DNA of 64,000 bases. Origin: Escherichia coli. Lineage in GTDB: Bacteria > Pseudomonadota > Gammaproteobacteria > Enterobacterales > Enterobacteriaceae. Position numbers and translations under genes: made by a program. This document shows positions 46,297-49,423 of the stretch, piece by piece. Each line of letters begins with the position of its first letter. The stretch's first letter is position 1. Under the pieces are notes generated by a model that did no database searches, was not told the origin of the DNA, and saw nothing but the letters and a program-made list of their open reading frames with translations. Location of the stretch: NCBI RefSeq assembly GCF_030013205.1, contig NZ_CP122648.1; one strand, 5' to 3'.

Positions 46297-46429
46297 GCCT
46301 GCGCCCGGTGGTGAAAGCTGCCGGGCAATTTTCCTCTCCCTTTTTCAGATCTCATCCATACTGGGTAGTGGCGAATAAATCTCATTTGCCTCACCTGCTA
46401 TGCAGAACATCATCCGAAAAGGAGGAACT

Positions 46430-47440
46430 ATGAAGGCTGCAGTTGTTACGAAGGATCATCATGTTGACGTTACGGATAAAACACTGCGCTCACTGAAACA
46501 TGGCGAAGCCCTGCTGAAAATGGAGTGTTGTGGTGTATGTCATACCGATCTTCATGTTAAGAATGGCGATTTTGGTGACAAAACCGGCGTAATTCTGGGC
46601 CATGAAGGCATCGGTGTGGTGGCAGAAGTTGGCCCAGGTGTCACCTCATTAAAACCAGGCGATCGTGCCAGCGTGGCGTGGTTTTACGAAGGATGCGGTC
46701 ATTGCGAATACTGTAACAGTGGTAACGAAACGCTCTGCCGTTCAGTTAAAAATGCCGGATACAGCGTTGATGGAGGGATGGCGGAAGAGTGCATCGTGGT
46801 CGCCGATTACGCGGTAAAAGTGCCAGATGGTCTGGACTCGGCGGCGGCCAGCAGCATTACCTGTGCGGGGGTCACCACCTACAAAGCCGTTAAGCTGTCA
46901 AAAATTCGTCCAGGGCAGTGGATTGCTATCTACGGTCTTGGCGGTCTGGGTAACCTCGCCCTGCAATACGCGAAGAATGTCTTTAACGCCAAAGTGATCG
47001 CCATTGATGTCAATGATGAGCAGTTAAAACTGGCAACCGAAATGGGCGCAGATTTAGCGATTAACTCACGCACCGAAGACGCCGCCAAAATTGTGCAGGA
47101 GAAAACTAGTGGCGCTCACGCTGCGGTGGTAACAGCGGTAGCTAAAGCTGCGTTTAACTCGGCAGTTGATGCTGTCCGTGCAGGTGGGCGTGTTGTGGCA
47201 GTCGGTCTGCCGCCGGAGTCTATGAGCCTGGATATCCCACGCCTTGTGCTGGATGGCATTGAAGTGGTCGGTTCTCTGGTCGGCACGCGCCAGGATCTAA
47301 CCGAAGCCTTCCAGTTTGCCGCCGAAGGCAAAGTGGTGCCGAAAGTCGCCCTGCGTCCGTTAGCGGACATCAACACCATCTTTACCGAGATGGAAGAAGG
47401 CAAAATCCGTGGCCGTATGGTGATTGATTTCCGCCGCTAA
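46430..47440 (+). CDS. adhP: Zinc-dependent alcohol dehydrogenase AdhP (336 aa)
   Basis: GHEGxG zinc-ADH motif, Cys cluster CGHCEYC, Rossmann GLGGLG; 336 aa from the internal Met. Confidence 0.9.
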
Positions 47441-47556
47441 GAGGCCTTTGCTGCGACTGCCATGTTCGGGTCGCAGCATCGCACACTCTCCAACATGAAA
47501 TGGCTAAATGGATTATTGTTGCGTAGGAAGGAACGCTACTGAGAGTAAAGACACTA

Positions 47557-47841
47557 ATGAAAATGGCCAATCATCCCCGCCCGGGGGACATTATTCAGGA
47601 ATCACTGGACGAACTTAATGTCAGCCTGCGCGAGTTTGCCAGAGCAATGGAAATTGCGCCCTCAACGGCAAGCCGATTGCTGACCGGAAAAGCAGCTTTG
47701 ACACCAGAAATGGCGATTAAACTTTCCGTGGTGATCGGCAGTTCGCCGCAAATGTGGCTAAATCTGCAAAACGCCTGGAGTCTGGCAGAGGCAGAAAAAA
47801 CGGTGGATGTGTCGCGATTACGCCGTCTGGTTACGCAATAA
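47557..47841 (+). CDS. yddM: HigA-like XRE-family HTH protein YddM (94 aa)
   Basis: 94-aa ORF with an HTH region ([27 protein letters not shown]) typical of HigA-type antitoxins. Confidence 0.85.
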
Positions 47842-47872
47842 AAAAAATGGCGCTTCTTAAAGCGCCATTTTC
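47841..47872. terminator. Bidirectional terminator between convergent yddM and fdnI
   Basis: AAAATGGCGCT / AGCGCCATTTT stem with A-tract on one side and T-tract on the other. Confidence 0.6.
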
Positions 47873-47892
47873 AGCTTAAAGTTCAAAAGAGA

Positions 47893-48546
47893 TTATATCC
47901 CTTCTTCACTCTCTTTTTTCGCTTCTGCCTTCTCGATTTCACGATACCAGCGCGGATGGTGTTTCTTCGCCCAGCGACGGCTCACCTTCCCTTCGATCAT
48001 CCCTTTAATCGATCCTTTCACCCAGAAAGCCATATACATATGGATCAGGATGGCGTGGATCAGGATGATACCCGCAGCCGCATGGATCAGCAGGCTATAA
48101 CGGACAACCTGTATCGGGAAGTACTGCGCAAAGTACGGACGCCAGATAATCACCCCGGTCACCAGCAGCACGAAAATCATGCTCATGATTGACCAGAACA
48201 TCATCTTTTGCCCGGCGTTGTACTTACCGACATCCGCCACTTTGTGCTCATTGCCTTTTAATACTTCGACAATGTTCAACAGCCACGGAATATCTTTCTT
48301 ATCCGGGATGTTGTGATGCACAAAACGCACAAACATAAACATCAGCGCGACGAAAATCGCAATGCCGAAGAACGGGTGCAAAATGCGTCCCATCTGCGGC
48401 GTACCGAAGGTTTGCGTCAGCCATTGCAGCGTCGGGAAGAAGAACGAAATCCCGGACAGCGCCACCAGGAAGAAGCAAATCACCACGGTCCAGTGACAGG
48501 CGCGATCAATAAATTTGGTGCGCACAATCATTTTCGACTTACTCAT
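47893..48546 (-). CDS. fdnI: Formate dehydrogenase-N gamma subunit (cytochrome b556, 217 aa)
   Basis: Membrane protein with conserved His residues; start at the internal Met [12 protein letters not shown]. Confidence 0.9.
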
Positions 48547-49423
48547 GATGATCCTCCTCGTCATCGTCCACTTCCTTATTCGGGCCAATACCGATGTAGT
48601 GGAAAATCAACCCGGCAAAAGTGGCAATAAAGCCAGCCGCTGCCAGCGGTTTCAACGCGCCTTTCCACAGGCTTACCGAGGTATCGATCTTCGGATCTTT
48701 CGGCAGACCGTGATACAGCTCCGGCTGATCGGCGTGATGCAGCACGTACATAACGTGCGTACCACCGACCCCTTCCGGGTTGTAGACGTCAGCATGTTCG
48801 TAACCACGCGCTTTCAGTTTCGCCACGCGCTGTTCCGCCAGCTCCAGCATCTCCTTCTTGGTGCCGAAGTGGATAGCCCCGGTCGGACAGGTTTTCACAC
48901 AAGCCGGTTCCTGGCCGACGCTGACGCGATCGACGCAGAGCGTGCATTTATATACCCGGTTATCCTCTTTGTTGAGGCGCGGAATATTAAACGGACACCC
49001 GGCAATGCAGTAACCACAGCCGATGCAGTTTTCCGACTGGAAATCGACAATCCCGTTAGCGTACTGAATGATTGCACCAGCAGACGGGCACGCCTTCAGG
49101 CAGCCCGGATCTTCACAGTGCATACAGCCGTCTTTACGGATCAGCCACTCCAGCTTGCCGTTCTGTTCGGTTTCGCTAAAGCGCATCACCGTCCAGGACT
49201 TGGCGCTCAGATCTGCGGGGTTATCGTAAACCCCGACGCAGTGCCCCACTTCATCACGGATGTCGTTCCACTCCGAACACGCCACCTGACAGGCTTTACA
49301 GCCGATACAGGTGGAAACGTCGATAAGTTTTGCGACTTCTGCTTTGTAATCACGCACCTGAGAAGGCGGCGTGATGGAGTTAGTTGCGGACCTTTTGATA
49401 ATGTCCTGCGTTTCCATAGCCAT
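48539..49423 (-). CDS. fdnH: Formate dehydrogenase-N beta subunit (4x[4Fe-4S], 294 aa)
   Basis: Four CxxCxxCxxxC ferredoxin motifs; overlaps the fdnI start by 8 nt. Confidence 0.9.

Follow-up and report, generated by a model that had tools for sequence, protein, structure and literature searches.

The yddM gene of Escherichia coli is predicted to encode an antitoxin, but no toxin gene accompanies it in the stretch of E. coli DNA analyzed here (64 kb in length, hereafter the window). This raises the question of whether yddM has lost its toxin, conceals it, or never had one, and what a solitary antitoxin is kept for. The initial annotation described YddM as an XRE helix-turn-helix (HTH) protein of the antitoxin type. 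It held that the 116-bp upstream spacer and the convergent fdnI gene leave no room for a toxin gene, and suggested an orphan antitoxin or possibly a repurposed regulator. Our analysis supports a more specific history: with a probability of about 0.9, yddM is the surviving antitoxin of an ancestral higB-higA operon, from which first higB and then a palindrome were deleted, and it was kept, most likely as a regulator.

Results

YddM is a HigA-family protein encoded between adhP and fdnI

The features of the locus are listed below, with the evidence for each in parentheses.

46430-47440, plus strand: adhP (alcohol dehydrogenase), upstream flank (ORF list; RefSeq annotation of the identical or orthologous stretch)
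47449-47478, plus strand: adhP-proximal hairpin TGCTGCGAC-N12-GTCGCAGCA (inverted repeat, RNA fold)
47516-47523, plus strand: TTGTTGCG box, candidate -35 region (alignment A3)
47527-47534, plus strand: GAAGGAAC, junction of a lineage-specific 29-bp deletion (alignments A1 and A2)
47543-47556, plus strand: GAGTAAAGACACTA, last DNA trace of the higB 3' end (alignment A1)
47557-47841, plus strand: yddM, intact gene for a 94-residue HigA-family antitoxin of the XRE-HTH type (ORF list, profiles, PDB match)
47843-47872, no strand: bidirectional terminator hairpin common to yddM and fdnI (terminator scan)
47893-48546, minus strand: fdnI (formate dehydrogenase-N gamma subunit), convergent downstream flank (ORF list)

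The adhP gene ends with a TAA stop codon whose final base is 47440, and is separated by 116 bp (47441-47556) from the ATG that opens the 94-codon yddM frame. A 51-bp spacer (47842-47892) follows, up to the stop of fdnI at 47893, with fdnI facing yddM. The hairpin close to adhP has a folding energy of -19.7 kcal/mol (z = -2.0) and is invariant across alleles (alignments A1 and A2). It is not a canonical terminator, as the U-tract is absent, and read-through from adhP into yddM is therefore possible. The terminator hairpin between yddM and fdnI is strong (-16.2 kcal/mol, z = -5.8). An Rfam scan of 46300-48700 with E up to 1 returned no sRNA or cis-regulatory family, and its sub-threshold matches corresponded to the terminator hairpin only. 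The window is 100% identical to strain CFSAN018748 over the queried stretch, where RefSeq annotates adhP, yddM, and fdnI alone, without a toxin gene, and names the yddM product a HigA family addiction module antitoxin.

The length of the yddM-fdnI spacer tracks the number of copies of a ~178-bp unit, in which REP-type palindromes are combined with one further terminator hairpin of the same kind. No such unit is present in the window (spacer of 51 bp), strains CRE1493 (L004 1731-1958) and GN02270 have one (spacer of 228 bp), and K-12-like strains have two in tandem (spacer of 406 bp; L003 1731-2136).

YddM matched Pfam HTH_3 over residues 14-65 (7.6e-10), as expected of an XRE/Cro-type HTH protein. 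It also matched the NCBIfam equivalog TIGR02607 (antidote_HigA) with 93.7 bits against a cut-off of 47.7, over model positions 1-80 of 81. Over all 94 residues, YddM is 100% identical to the crystallized E. coli protein deposited as antitoxin HigA (PDB 2ICP/2ICT). Because the sequence is that of the solved protein, YddM has the HigA fold and dimer, and a non-antitoxin fold can be set aside. By homology, YddM is a dimeric XRE HTH repressor.

No toxin gene is present in the window

When the whole 64-kb window was searched by tblastn with the cognate 92-residue toxin (see below) at E up to 100, the best match had E = 0.7 and the spacer was empty. Six-frame translation of 47441-47556 gave short, stop-ridden frames with no toxin remnant at the protein level, and neither the ORF list nor the six frames contained an ORF of plausible size in or across the adhP-yddM spacer. 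Thus, the lack of room for a toxin between the genes, deduced earlier from the 116-bp and 51-bp spacers, was confirmed, and no HigB/RelE remnant or toxin ORF overlapping the 3' end of adhP came to light by tblastn or in the six frames. Two parts of a complete higBA module are missing from the window: an adjacent co-transcribed toxin gene, and a palindromic operator in the module's own promoter, as the putative operator palindrome is absent from the spacer.

These results refute a HigB-family toxin inside the window, and a non-homologous toxin would have no ORF to encode it. An unrecognized toxin, overlapping the adhP 3' end or encoded nearby, is hardly conceivable: no point in its favor was found, RefSeq annotates no toxin in the identical genome, and the E. 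coli toxin gene is confined to one place per genome.

The cognate toxin gene lies upstream of yddM in other E. coli strains and in related genera

The adhP-yddM-fdnI stretch is near-universal among 5,426 complete E. coli genomes, and in some strains an extra gene lies between adhP and yddM. In GN02270, this gene is an intact 92-residue ORF (WP_000605676.1), the stop codon of which overlaps the yddM start codon (TGATG). Its product matched Pfam PF05015 (HigB-like_toxin) at 1.4e-17, is 56.5% identical to HigB of Proteus vulgaris Rts1, and retains the catalytic residues H54, D90, Y91, and H92. The toxin gene was found in 1,331 of the 5,426 genomes (about a quarter), always as a single copy. We found yddM in 5,412 of the genomes (full length in 5,408, no match in 14), such that about three quarters of E. 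coli genomes carry an orphan yddM.

Toxin-plus and toxin-less strains encode one and the same antitoxin protein (WP_000781370.1). YddM of the window should therefore have kept the ability to bind the cognate toxin and the corresponding operator.

The toxin gene is not always intact where it is present. A 1-nt deletion frameshifts the toxin in strain Ecol_745 (L001 1486-1763), where the antitoxin protein is unchanged. In an evenly spaced sample, 12 of 29 full-length toxin matches had 278 instead of 279 bases, like the Ecol_745 frameshift. A large share of the toxin-bearing genomes, ST131 included, therefore probably carry an inactive toxin.

A different toxin deletion was observed in E. coli O157:H7 TR01 (L005 1402-1546), where the last 47 nt of higB are kept at 100% identity. 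This allele consists of a B2-type leader, a K-12-type TTGTTGCG..GGAACAATAAT segment, and then the higB end, and arose either by a separate deletion or by recombination. Only 2 of the 1,331 toxin matches covered less than 80% of the gene, which makes such an allele rare.

Relatives were scanned with YddM in one genome per species (GTDB). Of the 41 loci returned, the 30 enterobacterial ones were examined, and 24 of these had an intact abutting toxin ORF, often adjoining fdnI. Such a HigB-like ORF was present in E. albertii, three further Escherichia lineages, and most Citrobacter, and also in loci of Cedecea, Buttiauxella, Pluralibacter, Enterobacter, Chimaeribacter, and Erwinia. Linkage to fdnI was seen in Escherichia, Citrobacter, Pluralibacter, and some Enterobacter. 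YddM is orthologous to an antitoxin encoded directly behind a HigB-like toxin gene, given that a PF05015 ORF abuts it at the same locus in the 1,331 toxin-bearing E. coli genomes and at these 24 enterobacterial loci. In E. albertii NBRC 107761 (L006 2223-2782), neither the toxin nor the antitoxin differs from its E. coli counterpart at any residue (100% identity), which reflects either unusually tight conservation or cross-species exchange.

At the remaining six loci the toxin has decayed beside an intact YddM homolog: Citrobacter sp. FP75, C. portucalensis, three Xenorhabdus, and Chimaeribacter californicus (L009, L015, L029, L030, L032, and L034). These are independent events. In Citrobacter sp. 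FP75, an internal deletion fused the toxin N-terminus to its last 12 residues.

Since toxin and antitoxin occur together in E. albertii and in 24 of the 30 enterobacterial loci, the comparison indicates that the toxin-bearing two-gene state is ancestral and that toxin loss is derived and recurrent. At this very site, the toxin gene is still found in roughly one in four E. coli genomes and in sister genera, and yddM is therefore an orphan by deletion. With an intact antitoxin ORF, no partner in the window, and intact modules at the same site in relatives, the designation of yddM as an orphan antitoxin is well founded.

The opposite history, in which yddM was never part of a toxin-antitoxin (TA) pair here and a toxin gene was later inserted beside a stand-alone XRE regulator, can be given almost no weight. 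It draws on the leader, which is non-homologous between the two haplotypes (87 nt in toxin-plus and 37 nt in toxin-less alleles, from the adhP hairpin to the TTGTTGCG box), so that they differ by more than one simple deletion. It is contradicted by synteny, as the pair adjoins fdnI in E. albertii, other Escherichia, many Citrobacter, Pluralibacter, and Enterobacter. Moreover, the higBA control motif survives in toxin-less alleles, as does a remnant of the 3' end of the toxin gene, and in TR01 a different deletion left 47 nt of that end.

Some single records depart from the usual arrangement. A Tn3-family TnAs1 insertion truncates yddM in strain E6474 (L053 1-1683), with loss of its N-terminus and of adhP. 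In PEC011, an IS200C copy lies between yddM and fdnI (L054 839-1297); the record is a 517-kb 'plasmid' carrying adhP-yddM-fdnI and is probably a chromosomal fragment. A 214-bp contig of coverage 1 in a Clostridium sp. CMCC3677 assembly (L036) is 100% identical to the 5' end of E. coli yddM, which suggests contamination.

Two deletions removed higB and part of its control region

The first deletion, of ~268 bp, is common to the window and K-12-type alleles (alignments A1 and A2) and begins just ahead of the higB start codon and ends ~14 nt short of the stop codon. In alignment A1, GAGTAAAGACACTA of the window (47543-47556) is paired with GAGGACTATCACTG, the last codons of the toxin gene in its intact form. 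These ~14 nt are all that can be traced of the toxin gene, with no similarity at the protein level. The Shine-Dalgarno sequence for the antitoxin, which is internal to the toxin gene, is degraded in the window from GAGGA to GAGTA (alignment A1).

The control region upstream of higB was aligned for 16 toxin-plus loci of 7 genera; alignment A3 comprises 18 sequences of 7 genera. The conserved block consists of TTGTTGCG, the palindrome GGAACA-N9-10-TGTTCC, and a third GGAAC half-site, and GTTGCG is invariant or nearly so across the 18 sequences. GGAACA-N10-TGTTCC is likely the HigA operator, and we infer a -35 role for the TTGTTGCG box. K-12-type alleles retain the control block, with a palindrome of 9-nt arms, and in them two GAAGGAAC copies flank AATAATGATAGTGTTCCCAGT.

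The second deletion removed 29 bp of the window allele between these two direct GAAGGAAC repeats; one of the repeats and the right arm of the palindrome (GGAACA..TGTTCC) were lost with them. The TTGTTGCG box is the only fully kept piece of the conserved control region in the window. A search for GGAACA-N10-TGTTCC with up to 2 mismatches gave no match near yddM and, across the window, a single 2-mismatch match at 29716, which is fewer than expected by chance.

The frequency of the window-type allele was counted directly with the 40-mer across the deletion junction, which occurs in 182 of 5,426 E. coli genomes (3.4%). The 254 records with at least 99% identity had been considered as a proxy for this allele and were dropped, as PEC011 has the 145-bp spacer at 99.3% identity.

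A further change in the control region was observed in O104:H4 2009EL-2071 (L047) and strain L3Cip3 (L048), where an 11-bp inversion converts GCGTAGGAAGG to CCTTCCTACGC. It lies between the 9-nt inverted repeats ATTATTGTT and AACAATAAT, about 40-70 nt upstream of yddM, within the conserved higBA control block, and alters the left arm of the palindrome. The variable control region of toxin-less strains (29-bp deletion, 11-bp inversion) argues against a strong autoregulation constraint.

Scans with the sigma-70 consensus returned no promoter-like site in the upstream regions of the window, K-12-type, or toxin-plus alleles, and thus lend no support to the promoter that we infer upstream of yddM. 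The window allele would be expressed either by read-through from adhP or from a weak residual promoter. Since the palindrome is lost and the Shine-Dalgarno sequence is degraded, the allele might be poorly expressed or silent.

The yddM coding sequence appears to be under purifying selection

The YddM protein is identical in the window, in K-12-like, O157, O104, and B2 strains, and in E. albertii. Compared with other E. coli alleles, the window gene has no non-synonymous and 4-12 synonymous differences, and E. albertii NBRC 107761 yddM differs from that of E. coli by 12 synonymous ones. The protein is thus the same across lineages with a dS of 0.06-0.2, and dN/dS against Citrobacter is 0.04-0.09. 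Among 10 toxin-less alleles, 12 segregating sites are synonymous and 3 non-synonymous (P = 8.7e-6 under neutrality, assuming that 76% of sites are non-synonymous). Part of this synonymous polymorphism is common to toxin-plus alleles, and could predate the deletion or stem from recombination. When only variants private to toxin-less alleles were considered, as a conservative measure, the numbers were 6 and 2 (P = 0.0036, same assumption). The synonymous excess, together with the near-universal retention of the gene, argues for continuing purifying selection on the yddM coding sequence while its control region erodes, with the caveat that the sample is small and recombination could blur the signal.

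These data also bear on whether yddM is simply a neutral relic, functionless since the loss of the toxin and slowly decaying, and intact only through its short length and the recency of the deletion. Such a fate would fit the separate erosion of the control region, namely the 29-bp deletion in 182 genomes, the O104:H4-type inversion, and the decay of the Shine-Dalgarno sequence. It would also fit the few genomes that have truncated or lost yddM (TnAs1 in E6474; no match in 14 of 5,426), and the repeated decay of the toxin in other genera while the antitoxin persists, which is the pattern anticipated if loss has to begin with the toxin. A purely neutral relic is nevertheless disfavored, and we consider it unlikely, given full-length retention in 5,408 of 5,426 genomes, an unchanged protein at this dS, the 12-to-3 synonymous ratio, and the DNA binding and expression effects reported from K-12 experiments.

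Possible roles of the orphan antitoxin

The K-12 experiments concern the same protein. One report describes ChIP-exo of YddM with motif analysis of the binding regions and a deletion strain (PMC6237786). Genetic interactions of yddM with stress regulators have been described (PMC9283627), and a single-cell CRISPRi screen found expression changes consistent with putative YddM binding sites. A Keio yddM mutant is hypersusceptible to epetraborole, a phenotype that was not complemented (PMC12457515). Collectively, these studies favor a residual regulator role for YddM, short of establishing one, and the early suggestion of a repurposed regulator stands as a possibility.

A protective role would be another reason to keep yddM: the orphan antitoxin might neutralize a HigB arriving on a plasmid or by recombination, and thus guard against post-segregational killing. 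Roles of this kind have been proposed for orphan antitoxins in reviews (PMC7354431). YddM is identical to the toxin's partner in toxin-plus strains and should accordingly be able to neutralize that toxin, and HigB-family toxins were found on 539 plasmids, 99 of them from Escherichia. However, the genuine plasmid homologs are all less than 60% identical to the cognate toxin, and the three plasmid matches of at least 90% include H61, a 4.9-Mb PLSDB 'plasmid' that is a mislabeled E. coli chromosome. YddM is only 41% identical to Rts1 HigA. Rts1 HigB ('host inhibition of growth') is growth-inhibitory in E. coli K-12, a yddM-carrying host. In addition, the Rts1 hig promoter shows full activity in BW25113 to which no HigA has been supplied (PMC12266136). 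Native YddM therefore evidently neither cross-protects against Rts1 HigB nor cross-represses the hig promoter in K-12. Protection against the cognate toxin is a plausible anti-addiction role, yet one with no visible plasmid target, and as an explanation for the retention of yddM we regard it as improbable.

The survival of yddM as the antitoxin of a decayed higB-higA operon is supported directly by the anatomy and homology of the locus, its deletions, its ancestry, and the selection signature. The sequence of events reads as follows. A type II higB-higA operon of the Proteus vulgaris Rts1 type resided in the chromosome, flanked by adhP and fdnI. The ~268-bp deletion, which occurred in the common ancestor of most non-B2 E. 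coli, took almost all of higB and placed higA (yddM) directly after the original control region. In the window lineage, the 29-bp deletion between the GAAGGAAC repeats then removed the likely HigA operator and likely -10 region. YddM itself came through both deletions unchanged, with its toxin and operator targets both absent at the window locus. The protein has most likely been kept as a DNA-binding regulator, present at a low level, that would act elsewhere and be held by purifying selection.

A bolder proposal is that orphan HigA has been exapted as a transcription factor with non-toxin targets, is maintained by purifying selection in about 75% of E. coli, and is uncoupled from self-repression by the palindrome loss in the window lineage. 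We put this forward tentatively, as a possibility well below even odds. If it were true, the 182-genome lineage with altered regulon output would amount to a small natural rewiring experiment.

Comparison with known systems

The orphan yddM is already known, with a RefSeq name, a PDB structure, and a published orphan status in K-12 and HS. Bustamante and Vidal (2020) reported that K-12 and HS retain only the antitoxin of the pair (PMC7232551). In the same work, the TA20 pair (ParE-2/HigA-2) of the AIEC strain NRG857c has a 279-bp toxin gene that overlaps a 285-bp antitoxin gene, about 35 kb from hipBA. Our assignment of TA20 to the yddM locus rests on the lengths of the two genes, their one-base overlap, and their location relative to hipBA, and not on sequence comparison. 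Our analysis adds the deletion breakpoints, the cross-genus control motif and the finding that 3.4% of E. coli genomes have lost it, the selection signal, and the recurrent toxin decay across genera. The locus is in itself ordinary and carries little weight beyond correct annotation. It provides a clean, well-populated example of chromosomal TA decay in which the toxin was lost first and the antitoxin was kept and constrained. The routes of toxin loss were deletion in the window, frameshift in ST131-like strains, and independent events in Citrobacter, Xenorhabdus, and Chimaeribacter.

The closest complete system is HigB(ParE-2)/HigA-2 of E. coli CFT073 and NRG857c (antitoxin structures 2ICP/2ICT), which occupies the same site between adhP and fdnI and has a 100% identical antitoxin and the same TTGTTGCG box. 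In contrast, the window lacks the 279-bp toxin gene, 29 bp of the control region including the palindrome, the TGATG translational coupling, and the internal Shine-Dalgarno sequence. E. coli K-12 yddM (b1477) is the same orphan antitoxin with the same toxin deletion and an identical protein. K-12 has the full GGAACAATAATGATAGTGTTCC palindrome, a 145-bp spacer, and two ~178-bp REP-containing units between yddM and fdnI, whereas the window has a 116-bp spacer and neither the palindrome nor the REP unit.

HigB-HigA of Proteus vulgaris Rts1 belongs to the same family, and its reversed gene order is that of the intact E. coli form. The Rts1 toxin shares 56.5% identity with the cognate toxin, and the 41% identity of its HigA to YddM extends over 81 residues. 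The Rts1 system is plasmid-borne, complete, and experimentally characterized, with distinct operator sequences, whereas the window holds the antitoxin only. Rts1 HigA, an obligate dimer, contains two complete HTH motifs; its operators overlap the -35 and -10 regions, and on its own it represses the hig promoter about 211-fold (PMC12266136). The GraT-GraA system of Pseudomonas putida is a homologous HigBA-type module, more distant and complete, in which the toxin is a de-repressor; GraA (6F8S) matches YddM at 1.8e-11, and its dimer agrees with E. coli HigA in the spacing of the HTH motifs (PMC6393540).

Finally, K-12 has another orphan HigA-type protein, the XRE/HigA-like YbaQ (PDB 2EBY), which matches YddM at 5.6e-9. 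YbaQ was reported as an antitoxin whose ParE-type toxin occurs only in pathogenic strains (PMC7232551), and it has also been studied as a transcription factor (PMC6237786). It has 113 residues, is encoded at a different locus, and is a distant paralog of YddM.
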